This document shows, in pieces, positions 2,652 to 40,273 of a DNA stretch of 64,000 nucleotides. The position numbers and the translations under genes were made by a program. The DNA is taken from assembly GCA_019745415.1 (NCBI GenBank), contig JAIETF010000009.1:64503-128502 (forward strand), read 5' to 3'. The stretch is from Candidatus Obscuribacterales bacterium (GTDB taxonomy: Bacteria > Cyanobacteriota > Vampirovibrionia > Obscuribacterales > Obscuribacteraceae). The notes below the pieces were generated by a model that had not been told where the DNA came from, made no database searches, and saw only the letters and a program-made list of their open reading frames with translations. How positions within the stretch are numbered: the first letter of the stretch is position 1; every line of letters begins with the position of its first letter.

Positions 2652-4499
2652 TCAGAGCCTCAAGACCTCTGACTCGGCATGCAATGTACTCAAACCAAGC
2701 CCATCACCAGCACTTACCACCTGATAGTTCCTCCACATCGCTGCCAGTTGTCCATTCTTAGCCAAGAGTTCGCTAAAACTGCCAGATTCTACAACTCTGC
2801 CGTTATCTAGAACATAGATACAATCAAAGAGCTCTAAAAGATGCAACTTGTGTATAGATGAAACCAAACATCTATCGGCGAATTTTCTCAGCACGGCAGA
2901 ATATATCAGCCTTTCATTGGCAGTATCGACACTGCTTGTAGGCTCATCCATCAAAATAATGCTGCTTTCTCTGGCAAAGAAAATACCGCGCGCCAAAGCC
3001 AGCCGCTGCTTTTCGCCACCGCTCAAATTGACCCCTTTCTCGGCTATATTTGTCTCGAGCCCGTCAGGCAGACGACCTAGCACTGACGCAAAACGAGCTG
3101 CCTCAACTGCATCAATCATATCGGCTCGATCTGCATCCATACCGAAAGCAATATTGAATGCAATGGTATCAGCAAAGATTTCTGGGTCTTGAGGCATGAG
3201 TGTCGTAGCAGCAGCGAGATGCCTTAAGCCATGGGGCATCTGCGTACCATCAACCACAACCGAGACAGTCTGAGGCTTCTGCAAACCCCTAAGCAAATTA
3301 AGTAATGTACTTTTGCCGCTGCCGCTTTCACCAACGAGGGCAATTGATTTACCTCTCACCAGCTCAATTGCCACATCGTTCAAATGATGCAAACGATGTT
3401 TATCGTCCTCATACGTGAAATTGAGGTTCTGCACCCGGATTTTCCGCCAATCATAAGATAGAGGCTCTGCCTGGTCGGCAGAATGATCCAGCTCTTCATA
3501 TGCATCACTAATGGTATCGACACCACGCAGGTCGGCGGCTTGCCTAACAACCACGCCATAATAACCGGCAAAAGTATAAAACGACTCGCCGATACGTCGC
3601 AAATACTCAAAGAGAGTAAAGAATGTACCGGCAAGAATTACCTGCTTTGCCAACAAATTGCTCTGCACATACCAGAACATGACCATAACCGTCATTCCCA
3701 TCACAATAAAGGAAGTTAGAGCCCACTTAATCTCGTTCACCTTGGCGTTAACCGTGAAAAGTGACTGCGAGCGATAAATGCGCCTCAAGACCTCGGCAAG
3801 AGTGCGATTCTCGAGCCTCAATGTAATCACTGAAACAATATTGCTTACATAGTCGTGAATGGCAGATGCCACATGGTTATCCATGATATTGAGCTCGTCA
3901 TACTGCTTGTCTAGAATGCGATCGAACAAAGCAATAATCAAAAGCGACAAGAGCGTAGCACCGAGGGCGGCAGCCGCGGCAATCGGCATAAAGTAGAAGA
4001 GAATCACCAGGGTGCCCAAAAGGCGCAAGACCATATAGACAATTTCAAAAGTGTCTTGAAAGAAGTTAGACATGGCTGTGGTGGCGCGATTGATCTTGTC
4101 TATGGTTTGTCCTGAATGGTGACCCGAATGCCATTGCACAGGCAGGGCGGTAACCTTTCTGAACAGTTCAGCTTTGAAGCTCGACCTGATTTGAAAAGCG
4201 ACATAGCGCTCTATAACCCGAGCCGGACCATGGAAAGCCCAGAAGCCCACCGATACTCCAAGAAGCATAAGCAGATACTTGCCGACATCAAGCAAAAGTT
4301 TGTCGCCAAGCTTGAGCCCGGCAGCCAAATCAATCTGCACATCATTGAGCATGCGCCCAATCACGAAAGGCTCTATCAGCTCAAAAGCCTGAGCGCCTAC
4401 AAACATAAGCATATAGATTACAAAGAGCTTTCTATGAGAACCGGCGTAATGCCAGCCCCTAGAAAACAACAAAGCGAAGGCGTTATTTCGTAAATTCAT
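2652..4499 (-). CDS. ABC exporter, fused permease plus ATPase (MsbA/multidrug type)
   Basis: Six-helix N-terminal half. Walker A GESGSGKST, signature LSGGEKQRLALAR, Walker B IILMDEPTS. The ORF extends to 4649, but the ATG at 4499 (MNLRNNAF...) gives a normal length. Confidence 0.9.
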   Translation of the reverse strand: MNLRNNAFALLFSRGWHYAGSHRKLFVIYMLMFVGAQAFELIEPFVIGRMLNDVQIDLAAGLKLGDKLLLDVGKYLLMLLGVSVGFWAFHGPARVIERYVAFQIRSSFKAELFRKVTALPVQWHSGHHSGQTIDKINRATTAMSNFFQDTFEIVYMVLRLLGTLVILFYFMPIAAAAALGATLLSLLIIALFDRILDKQYDELNIMDNHVASAIHDYVSNIVSVITLRLENRTLAEVLRRIYRSQSLFTVNAKVNEIKWALTSFIVMGMTVMVMFWYVQSNLLAKQVILAGTFFTLFEYLRRIGESFYTFAGYYGVVVRQAADLRGVDTISDAYEELDHSADQAEPLSYDWRKIRVQNLNFTYEDDKHRLHHLNDVAIELVRGKSIALVGESGSGKSTLLNLLRGLQKPQTVSVVVDGTQMPHGLRHLAAATTLMPQDPEIFADTIAFNIAFGMDADRADMIDAVEAARFASVLGRLPDGLETNIAEKGVNLSGGEKQRLALARGIFFARESSIILMDEPTSSVDTANERLIYSAVLRKFADRCLVSSIHKLHLLELFDCIYVLDNGRVVESGSFSELLAKNGQLAAMWRNYQVVSAGDGLGLSTLHAESEVLRL

Positions 4500-29471: not shown

Positions 29472-30731
29472 TCAACTCCACCCCAAACTCTCAGCCAAGC
29501 GACAAAGTTCAAGATCTTGACCAGGCAAGGCAAGCAAGCCGAGCGGAAAATCCAAGTGCCCGAGAACTAGTTCGGGAAAACCAAGAAAAGAACCGGGAGA
29601 GTTAAGCAGAAGATTCTTGCGCCGATTGTCGAAAAGTTCGCGGTCAGAAGCGTTCAACAAGGGCGGCAAATCACACACCACTGGCAATACCATTACCGTG
29701 ACGCAAGGCAAGCCATTGTGGCGAGTTTCTCGTATGCCTTCCGCCTGCAGCCAAGCTATAGTCTCACTTATGATCGCTTCTCGTCTTGCTTGCCCTTCTC
29801 TGTACTGCGCTTCTGTGATTGTCGCCCCAGCCAGCAAACGCTCGGCTATGGCAGGCGAGAGAGCCGGTTTGCTCTCTCTAAACCACTTTCCATAGTGCTG
29901 CCAAGCTTCATAGCCGCGCATTACAGCAAACAATCCCACCATCTCTTCTAAATCGTAAGGCGGCTCTACAAACTTTCCAAGATCAAAAGCGGCAGCAAGC
30001 GAAGAGTCAAAACGCGCTTGATTGGCTGCATCTAATAGCCGGCGAGCCGATGCATCAACCAAAACCATTAGTTCTTCTCTCTTCGCCAACACATTTCCTG
30101 ACGCATCATCGGGCGACTTATCAAATTCGCACCCTGAGCTTACACCCAGCAAGACAGAAAGCACTCGTGTCAATACTTGGGCTTGACGGGAAAATATGCC
30201 GACAGCGTCAAATGTCTCACCTAAAGGCAAAACCCCGTCCTTACTCAAAAGACCGTGGCTGCTGCGCAAACCGTAGGTGCCGCAATATGCTGCCGGCACA
30301 CGCACCGAGCCCGAGGTATCGGTACCGATGGCGAAATCAGCGTGTCCGGCGCCCACCACCGAGGCTGAACCGCTGGAAGATCCGCCGGGAATTCTCTCAG
30401 GATAGCGGGGATTGACCGGAGTACCATAAAAGGCATTTATCCCATCCATACTAAGGGTGAGCTCATCGCAAATAGTTGTGCCGACCAGTTCGGCTGCCGC
30501 ATCAAGCACTTTCTGCACACAGTCTGCATGGGCTTGCGCCGGGCTCTGCATGTTAGCCCAGAAAGGCGAGCCAAAACCAGCAACCATTCCCTGCACTGCT
30601 ATGTTGTCTTTGACTGCAAAAGTCAAATCTTGAAGAGCTCCGCTTGCAGCATTCTTAAGATGCAGCCTTTGCACGAAGCCGTCGCTTCTGTCGTTACCTG
30701 CTTTTGATTGCTTATCTAAGTCGGTCGCCAT
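29472..30731 (-). CDS. Amidase-signature family amidase
   Basis: GGSSSGSASVVGAGHADFAIGTDTSGSVRVPAAYCG is the canonical AS motif with the Ser-cisSer-Lys context. Confidence 0.85.
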   Translation of the reverse strand: MATDLDKQSKAGNDRSDGFVQRLHLKNAASGALQDLTFAVKDNIAVQGMVAGFGSPFWANMQSPAQAHADCVQKVLDAAAELVGTTICDELTLSMDGINAFYGTPVNPRYPERIPGGSSSGSASVVGAGHADFAIGTDTSGSVRVPAAYCGTYGLRSSHGLLSKDGVLPLGETFDAVGIFSRQAQVLTRVLSVLLGVSSGCEFDKSPDDASGNVLAKREELMVLVDASARRLLDAANQARFDSSLAAAFDLGKFVEPPYDLEEMVGLFAVMRGYEAWQHYGKWFRESKPALSPAIAERLLAGATITEAQYREGQARREAIISETIAWLQAEGIRETRHNGLPCVTVMVLPVVCDLPPLLNASDRELFDNRRKNLLLNSPGSFLGFPELVLGHLDFPLGLLALPGQDLELCRLAESLGWS

Positions 30732-30772
30732 AAATTAGTTAAACTGAGCTCGCAATAATTCGTTTTACTTTG

Positions 30773-30801
30773 TTGACACAAAATGTCTTTGCCATTTTAC
30801 T
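30773..30801 (+). promoter_or_regulatory. Candidate sigma70-type promoter for the arg leader (TTGACA-17 nt-TTTACT)
   Basis: Perfect -35 at 30773-30778 and a weak -10 at 30796-30801. This would place the TSS near the leader ATG, implying a leaderless leader ORF. Confidence 0.25.
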
Positions 30802-30807
30802 AAGCTT

Positions 30808-30858
30808 ATGCTCAAAACAGTTAATACCGTTAGCCGTCGTCGCCGCGAGTTCAATTGA
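30808..30858 (+). CDS. Candidate arg operon leader peptide (16 aa, four consecutive Arg codons)
   Basis: ATG CTC AAA ACA GTT AAT ACC GTT AGC CGT CGT CGC CGC GAG TTC AAT TGA = MLKTVNTVSRRRREFN*. No clear SD. Confidence 0.55.
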   Translation: MLKTVNTVSRRRREFN

Positions 30859-30860
30859 AC

Positions 30861-30902
30861 CCGAGGGATTAGCGGCTTGCAGCAAGATCATTAAATCCCC
30901 GG
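30861..30902 (+). promoter_or_regulatory. Candidate antiterminator pairing (segment 2 with segment 3)
   Basis: CCGAGGGATT (30861-30870) equals the terminator 3' arm CCGGGGATT plus one extra A, so it can pair with AATCCCCGG (30894-30902). Confidence 0.55.
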
Positions 30903-30923
30903 ATGCACCGGGGATTTTTTTTT
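30893..30923 (+). terminator. Intrinsic terminator 22 nt upstream of the argF ATG (attenuator terminator)
   Basis: AAATCCCCGG / loop ATGCA / CCGGGGATTT, followed by a run of 9 T. There is no upstream plus-strand gene for it to terminate. Confidence 0.75.
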
Positions 30924-30945
30924 AGCGCAATACAAGGAACAAAGA

Positions 30946-31977
30946 ATGGACCTAGCAGCAGAAATAACTAAGTTTGACGCCAATAAGCTCAACAGTAATA
31001 AGCCTCAGCGTATGGCAAAGCCGGACGGTCCATCAGCCCTAGAATATGTACTATATGAACAGAGCTTGCGGGGCAAAGATATAATCGGCATCGAGCATCT
31101 CAATGCTCAAGAGCTGATGCTTATTTTAGACCTGGCGGCAAAACTAAAGGCTAATAAGTTCGACGAGACTCAGACTCTTTTCGGCAAGGGTCAAACCTTG
31201 GCTATGCTCTTTGAGAAACCATCACTGCGCACCAGAGTCACCTTTGAAGCCGGTATGACTCAGCTGGGCGGACACGCCATCTATTTGGAAGGCAAGTTGG
31301 GCGAGCGCGAAGCGATAAACGATATCGGCAAAAATCTAGAGCGCTGGGTAGACGCAGTCATGGCCCGCACTTTCGCCCACGAAACGGTGATCAGCTTGGC
31401 CGCCAATGCCAATATTCCAGTCATCAACGGGCTTTCCGACAAAGAGCATCCCTGCCAAGCTCTGGCAGACTTTCAAACAATTATCGAGCACAAAGGCAAA
31501 CTCAAAGGCATCAAACTTGCCTATGTGGGCGATTCCAACAATGTTTCCAACTCGCTGCTCTTTACTGCAGCGACACTGGGCACCGACTTTGCCATGGCTT
31601 GTCCCCATAAATATGAACCACAAGCCTCGGTCTGGATGAAAGCTCTTGAGCTGGCAGGAAAATCGGGCGCCAAGCTCAGTTTAACTGCTGATCCGGCGGC
31701 GGCGGTAGCTGATGCCGACGCTGTCTATACCGATGTTTGGACATCAATGGGGCAAGAAGCCGAGGCGAAAGAAAGAGAAAGTATCTTTGCCCCCTATCAG
31801 CTCAACAGCAATCTTTTGAAAGCTGCTAAGCCTGACCATATAGTTATGCACTGCCTGCCCGCCCATCGCGGACTAGAAATCACCGACGAGGTCATAGACG
31901 GACCCAATTCGGTTGTTTTTGATCAAGCAGAAAACCGACTGCATGCCCAGAAAGCCATTATGGCTCTGATTATGTAA
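30946..31977 (+). CDS. argF: Ornithine carbamoyltransferase
   Basis: Motifs SLRTRVTFE, HPCQALAD, DVWTSMG and HCLPAHRG. AAGGA upstream of the ATG. About 35-aa N-terminal extension relative to typical OTCases. Confidence 0.9.
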   Translation: MDLAAEITKFDANKLNSNKPQRMAKPDGPSALEYVLYEQSLRGKDIIGIEHLNAQELMLILDLAAKLKANKFDETQTLFGKGQTLAMLFEKPSLRTRVTFEAGMTQLGGHAIYLEGKLGEREAINDIGKNLERWVDAVMARTFAHETVISLAANANIPVINGLSDKEHPCQALADFQTIIEHKGKLKGIKLAYVGDSNNVSNSLLFTAATLGTDFAMACPHKYEPQASVWMKALELAGKSGAKLSLTADPAAAVADADAVYTDVWTSMGQEAEAKERESIFAPYQLNSNLLKAAKPDHIVMHCLPAHRGLEITDEVIDGPNSVVFDQAENRLHAQKAIMALIM

Positions 31978-32027
31978 GCAAAAATTTTCCCTTTATTTAA
32001 ATCTGTACATTGAGCGAGGTCATACAA

Positions 32028-33248
32028 ATGAAAAAAATTCTTCTAGCATACAGCGGCGGGCTTGATACAAGCTGCATTCTCACCTGGCTCAAAGAAAAGT
32101 ACCAAGTGCCAATCGTGGCTTATCTAGCCGATGTAGGTCAAGAAGAAGACTTTGACAAAGTAATCGAGAAAGCCCACAAGACAGGCGCAGAAAAATGCAT
32201 TATCGATGATCTAAAGGCCGACTTCGCTCAAAACTTTATCTTTCCTTCTATCAAAGCCAATGCCGTCTATGAGCTGGTTTATCTGATGGGTACATCGCTG
32301 GCCCGCCCTTGCATAGCCAAAGGTATGGTGGAAGCAGCTCTTAGAGAAGGCTGCGACACTATCGCCCACGGCGCCACAGGCAAAGGCAACGATCAAGTAC
32401 GTTTTGAACTAGCCATCAAAAGTCTTGCCCCTCAACTAAACGTAATCGCGCCCTGGCGCGAATGGGAATTTCAAGGCAGAAGCGATCTCTTCGCCTATGC
32501 AGAAAAGCACGGTATTCCCTTGCCTGTAACCAAAGACAAACCCTATTCTATAGACGCCAATCTAATGCATATTAGCTATGAAGGCGGCATTCTTGAAGAC
32601 CCTTGGGCAGAAGCGCCGGAAGACATTTATATGTGGACGAAAAATCCAGAAGAGGCGCCGGACAAGCCTGAGTTTGTCGAGATAGAATTTGACGCCGGTT
32701 GCCCAGTGGCCATCAACGGCGAGAAATTAGAACCGGCCAAACTAGTGGCAAAAGCCAATGAAATTGCCGCCGCCCATGGGGTTGGTCGTATAGATTTGGT
32801 AGAGAACCGCTACATCGGCATCAAATCTAGAGGTGTTTATGAAACACCAGGGGTGACTATACTGATGCAAGCCCACCAGGCTGTTGAGTCTTTGACTCTA
32901 GATAAAGAAGTGGCCCATCTGAAAGCGAGCTTGATAGGCAAAATAGCCGAATTGACCTATAACGGCTATTGGTTTGCCCCAGAAACAAAACTTTTGCACA
33001 ACCTCATCGAAGAATCACAGAACACTGTCAGCGGCACAGTCAAGCTGAAGCTCTATAAGGGGCATTCGATGGTGGTGGCAAGAAAGTCAGAACAGTCTCT
33101 CTATAGCGAAAAGATGACAAGCTTTGAAAACATGAGCAGCTTCAACCCTGCCGATTCAGGCGGTTTCATCAATATTAGCGGACTAAGACTTTCCACCTGG
33201 AGCAAGAAAAATGGAAGTATTAAGAAAAGCCTTCAGCCAAAAGCTTGA
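32028..33248 (+). CDS. argG: Argininosuccinate synthase
   Basis: AYSGGLDTS and GATGKGNDQVRFE. ATG at 32028 is preceded by GAGG. The ORF opens at TTG 32010. Confidence 0.95.
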   Translation: MKKILLAYSGGLDTSCILTWLKEKYQVPIVAYLADVGQEEDFDKVIEKAHKTGAEKCIIDDLKADFAQNFIFPSIKANAVYELVYLMGTSLARPCIAKGMVEAALREGCDTIAHGATGKGNDQVRFELAIKSLAPQLNVIAPWREWEFQGRSDLFAYAEKHGIPLPVTKDKPYSIDANLMHISYEGGILEDPWAEAPEDIYMWTKNPEEAPDKPEFVEIEFDAGCPVAINGEKLEPAKLVAKANEIAAAHGVGRIDLVENRYIGIKSRGVYETPGVTILMQAHQAVESLTLDKEVAHLKASLIGKIAELTYNGYWFAPETKLLHNLIEESQNTVSGTVKLKLYKGHSMVVARKSEQSLYSEKMTSFENMSSFNPADSGGFINISGLRLSTWSKKNGSIKKSLQPKA

Positions 33249-34575
33249 CCAGGCGCTCACCGAATTTGTCGGCTCGATAGATGCCGATGAATTTCTCGTC
33301 GAAGCCGATATCAGGGGTAGTATCGCCCATGCCACTATGCTTGCCGGCGGCGGTCTCTTGACCGCCGCTCAGGCAGACAATATTGTTGGCGGGCTGCAAA
33401 CAATTCTCGACCTATATAAAGCAGGCGCTTTCAAGCTCAACCCGGCTTTCGAAGACGTGCATATGAATGTCGAGAAGAAACTGCAAGAACTAATTGGTGA
33501 AGATGCCCTCAGGCTGCACACGGCGCGCAGTCGCAATGACCAAGTGGCGCTCGATATTAGACTTTATGCCTTGGGCTGCATCGAAGCCAATCTTAACGAT
33601 ATCAACGAACTGGTGGAAACAATCAAGGTTGTAGCGGCTGAAAATATCGATGCTATTTTGCCGGGCTATACCCATCTACAACGAGCACAACCGGTGCATT
33701 TCGCCCATGCGCTCTTAGCCTTTGTCGAGATGCTCGAAAGAGACAAAGCGAGATTGCAAGATCTAACCAAGCGCGTGGCTGTTTCGCCATTGGGGGCGGG
33801 CGCCCAAGCCGGTACTGGCTTGAATATCAACCCAGCTCTAAGCGCCAAGCTTTTGGGTATGCCATCGCATTTTGCCAATTCAATCGATGCGGTGAGCGAT
33901 CGTGATTTTGTTGCCGAATATCTATTTGTCGCAGCTATGTGCGGCGTGCATTTAAGTCAAATGGCAGAGACATTTATTATCTACGCCAGCAAAGAATTCA
34001 GCTTCATTTCATTCAGCGACGCAGTGACCACGGCCTCAAGCTTGATGCCTCAGAAAAAGAATCCCGACCCAGTGGAGTTAATCAGGGGCAAATGCGGCTC
34101 AATGGTTGGTGAACTGGTCAATATATTGGTCACCTTGAAAGGCTTACCGCTCGGGTACAACCGCGATCTACAAGAGACCAAGCCTCCCTTAATCAAGACA
34201 GCTAAAGAAATAGGCAATTGCCTGCGGGTCATGACCGTGGTTTTGCAATGCCTGAGCGTCAATAAAGAAACAACCCTAAAGGCTGCATATGATGCCGAGA
34301 TGATTAGCACCGACCTGGTGGAGTACTTGGTCAATAAGGGCGTGCCCTTTCGCAAAGCCCACGAAGATATCTCAGCCCTGGTTGCCCACGCGAGAGAAAG
34401 CGGCGTGCCCTTGAATGAACTGAGTCTTTCAGCTTGCCAAACATTCAATCAAGCTTTTGAGAGCGATCTCTTTAAACTATTTGACCCAAAAGGTTCGCTG
34501 CAGGCGAAAACATCGCCCGGCAGCACCGGCACCGAACAAGTCAAAGCGGCTCTCTCTAAAGCTGCTAAAATCTAG
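33211..34575 (+). CDS. argH: Argininosuccinate lyase
   Basis: PGYTHLQRAQP and SSLMPQKKNPD. The N-terminus aligns residue-for-residue with E. coli ArgH as I remember it. Overlaps argG by 38 nt. Confidence 0.95.
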   Translation: MEVLRKAFSQKLDQALTEFVGSIDADEFLVEADIRGSIAHATMLAGGGLLTAAQADNIVGGLQTILDLYKAGAFKLNPAFEDVHMNVEKKLQELIGEDALRLHTARSRNDQVALDIRLYALGCIEANLNDINELVETIKVVAAENIDAILPGYTHLQRAQPVHFAHALLAFVEMLERDKARLQDLTKRVAVSPLGAGAQAGTGLNINPALSAKLLGMPSHFANSIDAVSDRDFVAEYLFVAAMCGVHLSQMAETFIIYASKEFSFISFSDAVTTASSLMPQKKNPDPVELIRGKCGSMVGELVNILVTLKGLPLGYNRDLQETKPPLIKTAKEIGNCLRVMTVVLQCLSVNKETTLKAAYDAEMISTDLVEYLVNKGVPFRKAHEDISALVAHARESGVPLNELSLSACQTFNQAFESDLFKLFDPKGSLQAKTSPGSTGTEQVKAALSKAAKI

Positions 34576-37711: not shown

Positions 37712-40273
37712 CTATTGCGATACAGACTGCATAAGCTTGAGGGCTTGTACAGTGCGGTCATCTTTATCACCAAATAGAGATTTTCGAATCTCATAGGACC
37801 CTTTGGCATACTCTAAGGCTTTGCCTTTGTCTTTCTGCGCCTTGCAAACCATAGCCAGACAGAACTGGGCATCAGCTAACCCCTCTTGTCTTGCACCGCC
37901 ACTGCGCTTGTTTATATCTAGAGCCCGCTCAAAATGCTGGTGGGCTTCATCTAGACGCTTGGCGTGATACTCGATTGAACCAAGAGTGATTAGCGAATTG
38001 GCAATAGCTGGATTATCAGGACTGAGACTTTTCTCTCGTAAATCGAGAGCTTTCTTGTAAAGATCGCGAGCTTTCATCCACTCGCCTGTAAATTGATATG
38101 CCTGCCCAAGTGCGCTCTCGATATTGGCTTTGTCGATAGGGTTGAAAGCCAGAGAAAACTCGGCAATCTTGAGAGCCTGAGATAAATACTTCACCGCCTC
38201 TTTTGGCTTATTCTGAGAGAGAGAGAGATTACCCAGAGCAGCCAACGTCTCTGCTACTTTGTCTTTCTCGGGACCGGTGAAAGTTTTGCGTACCTTCAAA
38301 GCTCGGTCTAAATAAAGACGAGACTCCTTGAAGTTACCCATAGCCAAATAAATTTCGCCCATATCATTGAGAGCTTCGCTGGCCTCCGGCGAACTAATCT
38401 GACCGGCACTCTCTCTTACTTTCAAAACAGCCCGGCAGGCTTCAAGGGCTTCGTCGAACTTACCAAGCTCAAAACAAGCTTTATTGATCCAAATTTGTGC
38501 TTCCGGCACCTGCTTTTCATAGCGACCCTTTTCTTTAGCTAGAGCAAGGGCGCTTTTGTACTGATCTAGGGCGACATCATAGTCACCGTGTTCGAAAGCA
38601 GAGTGGCCTCGCTTCATGATCTCTTCAAAAGCCAGACCAGCAGCGGGTTTATTGTCACCGCCGCCCACCACATTGAGAACGCTATTGAAACCGCCCAGAC
38701 CTGTGCTAGACCCGCCTGAACCAGAAGAAGAGTTTCTGCCGGGCTCGGCATGCTTGCCCGAGAATGCCATAAAGGAAAGAACACCAACAATAAGCACCAG
38801 CACTACAGCGCCGATCAAGACCGGGCGGGGCAAGGCACTGCTGTCGTATTTTCTGCTGGCTGCTACATTTTGACTTTTGACCGAGCCGCCACTAGATCTC
38901 GCACCTGACCCGGCACCTGAACCGGCACCTGACCCGGCACCTGAACCAACAAAAGTGCGCAACTGCGCTTCATCTACTTTCTGCGCCCCGGTCTGCGACT
39001 GTTTCTCGGCGCTTACTGTTGGTTTAGCGGCTTCCGCCGTATCTTTGCCTGACGCCGCCCGCGCTTGTTCGGGAGTGCGCGCATCGGTGGTAATGGAGCG
39101 GAAGACCGGCGGAGCATCGGCTCCGGTGCCCGACGGCACTCGCACCGTTTGTGATACCACCTCTTCATCGGCAGCGGCGACACCCTCGGCGCGAGCCTGT
39201 GCTGCCGCTTCGCTCATATTGAGGCTGGCCACCGAATTGGTTTCTTTCTGGGCATAAATCGAACCTGAGAGAGTGCCATAAAGCCCAGACATCTCTTTGC
39301 GCGCCAACTCGACCAGATCGTCCTTGAGCTCATCCATGCTTTGATAGCGCTGGTCAGGATCTTTAGCCATAGCTTTAAAGACAATTTCTTCTAAACCAGG
39401 GGGGAACTGAAAATCAGGCACGACTTCGGCAAAGGAGCGAGGCACTCCGCTTACATGATTGGAGAAGCACTCGATGGCACTTTGCCCTGAAACTGCCGTG
39501 ACGCCGGTCAGAACCCGATACATAACACAGCCCACCGAATAAATATCAGAGCGGGCATCTAGGGTCTTACCCATGCACTGCTCTGGGCTCATATAAAGCG
39601 GGCTGCCGAATACTTCTCCGCTCTTCGTGAGGTCTTCAGACTCACCGTCCACTGCTCCGGTGATTTTAGCCATGCCGAAATCGACTACTTTGACGAAATT
39701 CTTGCGCCCTTCCCATTCCACCAACATAATGTTGGCAGGCTTCAAGTCTCGATGCACAATACCTTTGCGATGAGCATGACCAAGCCCTGATGCTGTTTGA
39801 ATAAAGATATCGATGGCGGCATCAAGAGGCAAATGCTGATTGGCATCAAGCATTTTGGAAAGATTGGTGCCTTCCAAAAAGTCCATGACCAGATATGGCA
39901 TGCCATCAGGAGTGACACCAAAGTCATAAACAGTAAGAATATTTGGATGATTGAGACTGCTTGCCGCCTGCGCTTCTTGTTTGAAGCGCTTCAGAGCTGA
40001 GACACTGGCAATGAGCTGGGGCAGCATTATTTTGATCGCTACCATTCTCTTCATGAGAGTATGTTTGGCTTTATAGACCAAGCCCATGCCGCCGGCACCA
40101 AGCTTCTCGAGAATCTCGTACTTGCCCGAAAGTATTGTGCCTATCAAACTATCGGTCTTTACCGGTGTCAATAACTCATCATCGTCCGGACAGAGTACGA
40201 TGTCCTCTGTGAACTCTTTGCCGCAGGTCATACAGACCTTGCGATAGGAACCGGACTGAGCTTCTTTTGACAA
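37712..40273 (-). CDS. Hanks-type Ser/Thr protein kinase with N-terminal zinc-ribbon-like motif, one TM helix and C-terminal TPR repeats
   Basis: CMTCG...CPDD, then GxGGMG...AIK, HRDLKPANIM, DFGMAK and SPEQ. A (GSGA)4 linker, a TM helix (VLIGAVVLVLIVGVLSFMAF), then at least seven TPR units. TTG start. Confidence 0.9.
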   Translation of the reverse strand: MSKEAQSGSYRKVCMTCGKEFTEDIVLCPDDDELLTPVKTDSLIGTILSGKYEILEKLGAGGMGLVYKAKHTLMKRMVAIKIMLPQLIASVSALKRFKQEAQAASSLNHPNILTVYDFGVTPDGMPYLVMDFLEGTNLSKMLDANQHLPLDAAIDIFIQTASGLGHAHRKGIVHRDLKPANIMLVEWEGRKNFVKVVDFGMAKITGAVDGESEDLTKSGEVFGSPLYMSPEQCMGKTLDARSDIYSVGCVMYRVLTGVTAVSGQSAIECFSNHVSGVPRSFAEVVPDFQFPPGLEEIVFKAMAKDPDQRYQSMDELKDDLVELARKEMSGLYGTLSGSIYAQKETNSVASLNMSEAAAQARAEGVAAADEEVVSQTVRVPSGTGADAPPVFRSITTDARTPEQARAASGKDTAEAAKPTVSAEKQSQTGAQKVDEAQLRTFVGSGAGSGAGSGAGSGARSSGGSVKSQNVAASRKYDSSALPRPVLIGAVVLVLIVGVLSFMAFSGKHAEPGRNSSSGSGGSSTGLGGFNSVLNVVGGGDNKPAAGLAFEEIMKRGHSAFEHGDYDVALDQYKSALALAKEKGRYEKQVPEAQIWINKACFELGKFDEALEACRAVLKVRESAGQISSPEASEALNDMGEIYLAMGNFKESRLYLDRALKVRKTFTGPEKDKVAETLAALGNLSLSQNKPKEAVKYLSQALKIAEFSLAFNPIDKANIESALGQAYQFTGEWMKARDLYKKALDLREKSLSPDNPAIANSLITLGSIEYHAKRLDEAHQHFERALDINKRSGGARQEGLADAQFCLAMVCKAQKDKGKALEYAKGSYEIRKSLFGDKDDRTVQALKLMQSVSQ
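38900..38947 (-). repeat. 4 x 12-bp in-frame tandem repeat encoding (GSGA)4
   Basis: Units gcacctgaMccg repeated four times on the plus strand. Confidence 0.75.

Follow-up and report, generated by a model that had tools for sequence, protein, structure and literature searches.

What does an intrinsic terminator do when it stands directly ahead of a biosynthetic operon and has no gene of its own to end? The question arises in a 64,000-nucleotide (nt) stretch of contig JAIETF010000009.1 from a Candidatus Obscuribacterales bacterium (the window below, by which we mean this whole 64-kb stretch), where a very short open reading frame (ORF) with four consecutive arginine codons, and then a perfect terminator, precede argF-argG-argH on the plus strand. 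The upstream amidase gene (29472-30731) lies on the minus strand, divergent from argF, and thus the terminator at 30893-30923 closes no upstream plus-strand gene, as a sequence-only reading of this DNA had pointed out. That reading proposed attenuation of the classical kind. Having compared the region with its relatives and folded it under modelled ribosome positions, we conclude that it is most probably a transcription attenuator of the ribosome-mediated, leader-peptide type, which would tune argF-argG-argH to the supply of charged tRNA-Arg. The sequence comparisons support well the view that it works like a trp/his-type attenuator, in an arginine version that belongs to no curated family.

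A short arginine-codon ORF and three competing helices ahead of argF

The leader ORF (30808-30858, plus strand) comprises 16 codons plus a stop (MLKTVNTVSRRRREFN; ATG at 30808, TGA at 30856-30858) and sits 88 nt ahead of argF. Its codons 10-13 (30835-30846, plus strand) read CGT CGT CGC CGC. Arginine accounts for 4.7% of window codons; at that frequency an ORF of 16 codons should contain four in a row ~6e-5 times, so that the arrangement exceeds chance. The intrinsic terminator downstream (30893-30923, plus strand) pairs AAATCCCCGG (RNA AAAUCCCCGG; 30893-30902) with CCGGGGATTT (RNA CCGGGGAUUU; 30908-30917) across the loop ATGCA (AUGCA), giving a perfect, G+C-rich stem of 10 base pairs (bp) with nine U (T run 30915-30923). 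It folds at -16.3 kcal/mol (z = -3.95), was also picked up by a terminator scan, and its T run ends at 30923, 22 nt before the argF ATG at 30946.

Between the ORF and the terminator lies CCGAGGGATT (RNA CCGAGGGAUU; 30861-30870, plus strand), the core of what we call segment 2, which mimics the 3' arm of the terminator. It pairs with 30892-30902 as an antiterminator, in a structure that spans 30857-30904 and folds at -15.2 kcal/mol. The ORF, its arginine run, this segment and the terminator all lie where the sequence-only reading had placed them, and the competition that it foresaw between 30861-30870 and the terminator hairpin is closely balanced in energy (-15.2 versus -16.3 kcal/mol). The attenuation geometry that it described is supported, and folds with a masked ribosome switch as expected, but it had missed a third helix. 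This helix, P1 (30832-30877, plus strand; 46 nt), joins a 5' arm at 30832-30852, which contains all four arginine codons and the following GAG TTC, to a 3' arm at 30857-30877, which holds the antiterminator strand; its apical stem is GUUC/GAAC with the loop AAUU, and it folds at -19.7 kcal/mol (z = -2.8). Because P1 both holds the arginine codons and sequesters the antiterminator strand, the geometry is closer to the trp model than first described. The three helices compete at comparable energies (-19.7, -15.2 and -16.3 kcal/mol), the minimum-energy fold of the window leader consists of P1 and the terminator, and the fold of the 131-nt leader has z = -4.1, with none of 200 shuffles as good.

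In the mechanism that this anatomy suggests, transcription would start from a TTGACA-N17-TTTACT promoter, probably at the leader AUG, and a ribosome would translate the 16-codon leader ORF. Segment 1 (30832-30852) bears the four arginine codons and would pair with segment 2 (30857-30877) to form P1, while segment 3 (30893-30902) would pair either with segment 2, as the antiterminator, or with segment 4 (30908-30917), as the terminator with its nine U. When arginine is plentiful, the ribosome would pass the arginine codons, reach the UGA at 30856 and cover segment 2, and after its release P1 would re-form; either way segment 3 would pair with segment 4 and RNA polymerase would terminate near 30923. 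When Arg-tRNA is scarce, the ribosome would stall at codons 10-13 and occupy segment 1, so that the free segment 2 could capture segment 3 ahead of the synthesis of segment 4; with the terminator blocked, polymerase would enter argF. What the analysis shows directly is the sequence elements with their energies, conservation and association with arg genes, whereas translation of the ORF, the start site, ribosome stalling and arginine-dependent read-through are steps that we infer.

The leader is conserved across Obscuribacterales

The comparison covered the DNA ahead of argF from genome assemblies (L001-L014) and from metagenome contigs reached via ArgF homologues (L201, L205, L206, L208, L209, L211 and L212). 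The window ArgF is 99% and 97% identical to those of two Candidatus Obscuribacter phosphatis assemblies (L001 and L002); we assign the window to this species, and these three sequences make up the O. phosphatis comparison. The next-closest ArgF sequences are from other Obscuribacterales (non-photosynthetic Melainabacteria/Vampirovibrionia), those of L003-L014 and the contig loci being 71-84% identical to the window.

A conserved leader, which we call family A, spans about 12 lineages of Obscuribacterales, and across them the short ORF, its arginine run and both alternative helices foreseen at the outset are retained. The leader peptide is identical in the window, L001 and L002, where the ORF differs only by two synonymous third-position changes, GTT>GTC and CTC>CTG. 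Eleven further lineages have homologous leader ORFs, 24-35 codons long (for example MRVNSKALIAVSSRRRRQFSTNRGIIL, MLLLASTTLIANAADRRRREFSPNPGHRLA, MQYQLASHSNSTAANRRRREFLEPGA and MLSLNISSNRRRRGFHENPGPLCRS, each given up to its stop codon). At every examined locus where argF heads argF-argG-argH, an upstream ORF with RRRR is followed by a terminator, with RRRH in L211 as the sole exception.

An alignment of eight leader peptides leaves only RRRR, an F and one G invariant, apart from the change of RRRR to RRRH in L211; RRRR is followed by E, Q, G or D and then F, and the stretch before it is free to vary both in its sequence and in its length (9-20 codons). Even so, 11 of 12 lineages retain an in-frame ATG, L211 having only GTG/TTG, and four insertions or deletions among close relatives (-3, +12, +15 and about -15 nt) all keep the frame. 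Arginine codons 1 and 2 vary at the third position only (CGU/CGC/CGA), and codons 3 and 4, which are paired within P1, are fixed as CGC CGC. Judged by these changes, the leader ORF is evolving as coding sequence, with frame and regulatory codons kept, and it is probably translated.

The helices are conserved along with the codons. RNAalifold predicts a P1 core of GCC.GC.GUUC / GAAC.CC.GGC. Two MAFFT alignments (A1 and A3) had the terminator and the window P1 out of register, which made their pair counts unreliable, and we replaced them with a model-fitted alignment, A5. On A5, 94.9% of P1 cells are paired, with three pairs changed on both sides; the terminator, found in all family-A relatives, co-varies among lineages with four such pairs; and P1 and the terminator together reach 94.6% paired with seven two-sided changes, a result matched by none of 500 shuffles and compared with at most 62% in slid registers, although A5 was fitted to this structure and its counts lean towards it, a bias opposite to that of A1 and A3. 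Across 20 leaders, 98.1% of the antiterminator helix is paired (slid registers at most 72%), a figure inflated by its self-complementary CCCGGG core; its columns are nearly invariant, so that its covariation is weak, with 45 of 500 shuffles scoring as high. When all upstream 12-nt windows are ranked as partners for the 5' arm of the terminator, the 3' arm of P1 comes first in 12 of 12 lineages, and the best-partner window begins 20-24 nt after the first arginine nucleotide. Thus the proposed antiterminator strand is the best upstream partner in all the lineages ranked.

A covariance model built from 17 leaders (R1) has a single match in the window, the leader itself, and finds all the relatives as well as leaders outside its training set. 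Segment 2, the arginine run and P1 are conserved across lineages whose flanks no longer align. A metagenome scan with the pattern CGNCGNCGNCGNSAGTTCNNNNNGARC proved too loose and was set aside: its readable matches are coding sequences of high-G+C genomes, and among the matches listed many encode a conserved TRRRREFKESIPYWG motif and 2 of 120 have a T run downstream.

Promoter and leader start

A promoter-like element can be read from the sequence at 30773-30801 on the plus strand (TTGACA at 30773-30778, a 17-nt spacer and TTTACT at 30796-30801); a stricter consensus scan does not list it. By eye, TTGACA-N17-TA(A/C)C(T/C)T stands at the same place before most leaders inspected (L003, L004-L014, L201, L205, L206, L208, L211, L212, the argJ leader of L214, and L019), with slight deviations in L020 (TTGACT-N17-TATCTT) and in the argC leader of L214 (-10 TAGTGT). 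The distance from promoter to ATG is 35-55 nt in most clades; in the O. phosphatis clade the ATG follows the -10 hexamer by 7 nt, so that the leader messenger RNA is probably leaderless there, with transcription starting at or beside the A of the ATG at 30808. This bears out the earlier remark that such a promoter would make the ORF leaderless, which the recurring promoter spacing renders plausible in the O. phosphatis clade. There is a precedent in the leaderless trpL of Sinorhizobium meliloti (PMC10117765).

The sequence TTTTACT occurs twice in the argF-amidase intergenic region, at 30763-30769 and 30796-30802, 33 nt apart. The upstream copy, suggested as the promoter by a MAFFT alignment, was rejected since it has no -35 element 16-19 nt upstream and TTGACA-N17 fits the downstream copy; it might serve the divergent amidase gene or be a remnant. 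We also observed that AGGTGC is conserved in L205 (2320-2345), L206, L212 and L214 (3415-3437), where it lies 14-20 nt ahead of the leader ATG, too far for a standard Shine-Dalgarno sequence.

Modelled switching and the case against attenuation

We modelled the ribosome by masking its footprint and then folding the transcript. When the footprint lay on any of the arginine codons and polymerase stood at the terminator loop, the antiterminator (2:3) was the fold obtained for the window and for L003, L004, L008, L012 and L013. The full-length transcript folded the terminator both when no ribosome was placed on it and when one stood at the stop codon. The window stop codon (30856-30858) lies at the top of P1, and a terminating ribosome would therefore cover 30861-30870.

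Several observations weigh against an attenuator of this design, besides the lean of A5 and the near-invariance and self-complementarity of the antiterminator noted above. At full length the terminator is thermodynamically favoured in every state modelled, and hence antitermination must be kinetic. In L004 and L012, without a ribosome and with polymerase at the terminator loop, the minimum-energy fold is the antiterminator and not P1. For the clades with long ORFs we estimate from spacing that a ribosome which has reached the stop codon would cover only the 3' end of segment 2, and in L019 it masks no part of it. No Shine-Dalgarno sequence is present before the leader ATG, as had been observed before; the leaderless start is plausible on the strength of promoter spacing; and the -10 TTTACT is weak, without the usual A at its second position. 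Finally, argF loci of two lineages (L203/L204 and L210) have no arginine leader, and argF there does not precede argG-argH. At these loci (L203:2280-2500, L204 and L210:2330-2500), argF is followed by a gene of about 280 amino acids instead of argG-argH, and the upstream regions share GTGACATTACTATTACATTT and TTGCTATTGACAC.

Arginine-rich leaders ahead of other arg operons

Leaders with arginine codons are also found ahead of other arginine-biosynthesis genes. Contig L214 carries argC and argJ-argB-argD, with two separate arginine-rich leaders, each having a promoter and a terminator. The argC leader (L214:3390-3600; MSSSNTSTYTSRRRRDFLENSGSIA, up to its stop codon) is homologous to the window leader and scores 72 bits with R1, although it was not in the training set. 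The argJ-argB-argD leader (L214:4725-5000, also L215:1045-1320) lies between argC and argJ; its ORF, MFASDSKNHINNHSIGHSSSRRNSRRRLLRSGFIWLC up to the stop codon, contains the arginine-rich motif SSRRNSRRRLLRSG, also cited as SSRRNSRRRLLR. Separate leaders before argC, argJBD and argFGH suggest that the entire arginine regulon of these organisms may be wired through tRNA-Arg charging.

In more distant genomes, further and different leaders followed by a terminator precede argJ in the Melainabacteria locus L019 (1595-1790; peptide ...SPRLRRPRF...), argC-J-B-F in L025 of the Fimbriimonadaceae (Armatimonadota; 442-600; ...SIRLRRPRIL...) and argF in L020 of the Obscuribacterales (3592-3860; motif SLRRRSLIKRQARG). 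The RLRRPR motif and a strong terminator are common to L019 and L025, that is, to two phyla. In L020 a promoter, the ORF MSSSFRTKSNYSLRRRSLIKRQARGILSEFINK (up to its stop codon) and the terminator follow one another before argF, and CCGGACCG is found inside the promoter spacer of both L019 and L020.

A different arrangement, which we call type B, occurs in the Obscuribacterales loci L015 (1000-1071), L016 (997-1068) and L017 (3619-3687). These leaders, of the form RRRR(RR)...MRRLRA-stop, have a good Shine-Dalgarno sequence, four to six consecutive arginine codons and the C terminus (S/C)MRRLRA-stop, and lie about 230 nt ahead of argG-argH-argF (L015, L016) or argF (L017). No terminator-like site was found downstream of them, and their output must therefore work in another way, perhaps through Rho, translational control or an arrest peptide. 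The sole feature common to all these leader types is in-frame arginine codons ahead of arginine-biosynthesis genes, which is the signature expected of sensing by translation.

Three other arginine-rich ORFs were considered as arg leaders and rejected. MKRRRLLYS in L065/L066 looks, by eye, antisense to an aminotransferase-like gene, and the candidate on the window minus strand at 39524-39604 lies inside an ORF of 853 amino acids. The small ORF of L005, L007, L008 and L009 precedes a carotenoid-cleavage dioxygenase gene, which itself lies directly upstream of the argF leader in these four assemblies. This ORF (...ALLNRRNIRR(A/S)HYCT...; MALLNRRNIRR...) is conserved at L005:1937-1996, L007:1487-1546, L008:1997-2050 and L009:1928-2044 and is accompanied by a terminator-like hairpin, which is probably the terminator of the preceding gene.

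Alternative explanations

The conserved RRRR-x-F motif admits a different sensor acting on the same RNA switch, namely an arrest peptide in which the nascent RRRR(E/D/G/Q)F stalls the ribosome in response to free arginine or through its polybasic charge, and not by tRNA-Arg charging; the fungal arginine attenuator peptide, TnaC and SpeFL offer models for such a sensor. The type B leaders lend this idea something, as their C-terminal (S/C)MRRLRA-stop, without a terminator, recalls peptides that arrest at the stop codon. The sign is wrong, however, because stalling at high arginine would favour the antiterminator and switch biosynthesis on. Moreover, the residues upstream of RRRR, which would lie in the exit tunnel, are conserved in neither sequence nor length, the residue directly after RRRR varies (E, Q, G or D), and the residues that follow are encoded by nucleotides of the P1 stem, so that their conservation is explained at the RNA level. 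We regard arrest-peptide sensing as quite improbable. Equally doubtful to us is the wider proposal that RRRR-x-F and the type B (S/C)MRRLRA-stop are arginine-tuned arrest peptides, which would give bacteria an equivalent of the fungal arginine attenuator peptide, and have together with codon-run leaders replaced ArgR for the whole Vampirovibrionia arg regulon.

Terminator/antiterminator switches of this kind can also be driven by proteins such as TRAP and PyrR, and the locus offers two possible targets for a protein, with the ORF then being incidental: an ArgR-like repressor could bind the 12-bp palindrome GTTCAATTGAAC (30849-30860), or an RNA-binding protein could bind the CGN-repeat RNA, whose block CGNCGNCGCCGC(G/C)AGTTC shows very high nucleotide conservation. 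The first target, which the sequence-only reading had raised as a protein-binding site, did not hold up. The palindrome forms the tip of P1 (GUUC, AAUU, GAAC), and relatives keep GTTC...GAAC around loops of 3-5 nt that are non-palindromic (TCACC, TCAAC, TTA, CATGA, CAG); since the palindrome is not kept, we read it as an RNA stem and not as a conserved DNA operator. An ARG-box search allowing at most three mismatches returned no match near 30700-30950, and its 12 matches in the 64-kb window equal the 12.0 expected by chance, so a DNA operator near argF was rejected. As to the RNA target, variation in the CGN block is limited to third codon positions, the insertions and deletions are in frame, and unrelated leader families share in-frame arginine codons only and no nucleotide motif. 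Control by a protein is therefore highly improbable, and sensing by translation of the arginine codons remains our preferred reading.

A third possibility is that nothing is regulated here: the hairpin would stop a fixed share of transcripts, insulate the operon or mark where a small RNA ends, and the arginine run would be a neutral feature of a small ORF, expressed or not. This would sit easily with the terminator's thermodynamic preference at full length, yet deserves very little credence, because to place a strong terminator after the promoter of essential biosynthetic genes makes sense only if it is conditional, segment 2, the arginine run and P1 outlast the alignment of their flanks, and arginine-rich leaders recur before three different arg operons in two phyla.

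The argF-argG-argH genes

NCBIfam matches confirm the gene assignments made earlier from the sequence. The first gene after the leader is argF, encoding ornithine carbamoyltransferase (30946-31977, plus strand; NF001986/TIGR00658, E = 6e-126), with a Shine-Dalgarno sequence, AAGGA, at 30934-30938. It is followed by argG, encoding argininosuccinate synthase of 406 amino acids (32028-33248, plus strand; NF001770, E = 3e-176). We corrected the start of argG to the ATG at 32028 (MKKILLAYSGG, with GAGG upstream) from the TTG at 32010 in the mechanical ORF list, and the relatives also have 406 amino acids. The third gene, argH, encodes argininosuccinate lyase (33211-34575, plus strand; TIGR00838, E = 9e-155) and overlaps argG by 38 nt, as it does in relatives. 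We looked for argC, argJ and argB in the 64-kb window and found none of them there, and the window contains no tRNA genes.

ArgF itself carries about 40 extra N-terminal residues ahead of the match to the enzyme-family profile, which begins at residues 41-44 (30946-31070 in the window). The extension is also present in relatives, where it is variable and ends in a conserved KPQRMA. Among ArgF homologues of about 485-580 amino acids (P0066-P0120; 65-70% identical to the window ArgF), many have an N-terminal Clp_N (PF02861) fusion, an example of which is encoded by the Armatimonadota locus L018 (2600-3020).

Implications and comparison with known systems

Leader-peptide attenuation is textbook knowledge for the Trp, His, Phe, Leu, Thr and Ile/Val operons, and for arginine the textbook mechanism is repression by ArgR/AhrC. 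None of the Rfam 15 families, Trp_leader, His_leader, Leu_leader and Thr_leader among them, attains its gathering score anywhere in the 64-kb window (the best sub-threshold hit is Phe_leader, RF01859, at 24.6 bits versus 55), and thus the leader belongs to no curated family. We found no leader-peptide attenuator of arginine biosynthesis in the searchable full-text literature, and a broad survey of attenuators lists no arginine case (PMC2965389). A Flavobacterium transcriptome likewise lists no arginine case. The earlier judgement that such control would be unusual for arginine biosynthesis thus stands, within the reach of Rfam 15 and the searchable literature.

If the proposed attenuator is real, arginine joins the amino acids sensed by codon-run attenuators, and the mechanism extends to the sister lineage of Cyanobacteria that does not photosynthesise, and apparently also to Armatimonadota. 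These groups have been met chiefly in metagenomes, so that, to our knowledge, almost nothing has been learned of how they regulate their genes. The covariance model R1 could become the seed of a new RNA family with which to annotate genomes, and the leader is a compact natural candidate for a sensor of Arg-tRNA charging.

Among systems that respond to arginine, the standard bacterial control of arg genes is the ArgR/AhrC repressor, which binds DNA at 18-bp palindromic operators, the ARG boxes. It shares with the window leader the pathway and the aim, repression by arginine, whereas its ARG-box site was not found near argF. The fungal arginine attenuator peptide, encoded by an upstream ORF of Neurospora arg-2 and yeast CPA1, is a conserved nascent peptide; when free arginine is high, it stalls the ribosome and translation further downstream is repressed. 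There too, an upstream ORF controls an arginine-biosynthesis gene by arginine, but the system is eukaryotic, has no run of arginine codons and no terminator, and follows the opposite stalling logic.

Closer in its sensing step is the Salmonella speF leader orf34/speFL, where ribosome pausing at two consecutive arginine codons under low arginine selects alternative mRNA structures (PMC6386406). Both it and the window leader would pause ribosomes at consecutive arginine codons in an upstream ORF, two in speFL and four here. The target of speFL is ornithine decarboxylase, and so polyamine synthesis, unlike the arginine biosynthesis genes of the window, and it acts by Rho-dependent termination, unmasking of the ribosome-binding site and RNase G sensitivity, whereas the window leader has an intrinsic terminator. 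In Staphylococcus aureus, rbfL senses arginine limitation by slow decoding of arginine codons in a small upstream ORF (PMC13009471). Unlike the window leader, it uses rare AGA/AGG codons, occludes the rbf ribosome-binding site and so works at translation, and targets a biofilm regulator.

In its architecture the window leader most resembles trpL, hisL, pheL, leuL, thrL and ilvL/ivbL, with a short ORF whose run of end-product codons lies inside segment 1. It shares with the trpL/hisL class the competing 1:2, 2:3 and 3:4 helices and an intrinsic terminator just ahead of the operon's first gene. It differs from that class in having no sequence homology to the Rfam leaders, in its hosts, which are Melainabacteria/Vampirovibrionia with an Armatimonadota relative, and in the amino acid that it would sense, which is arginine.

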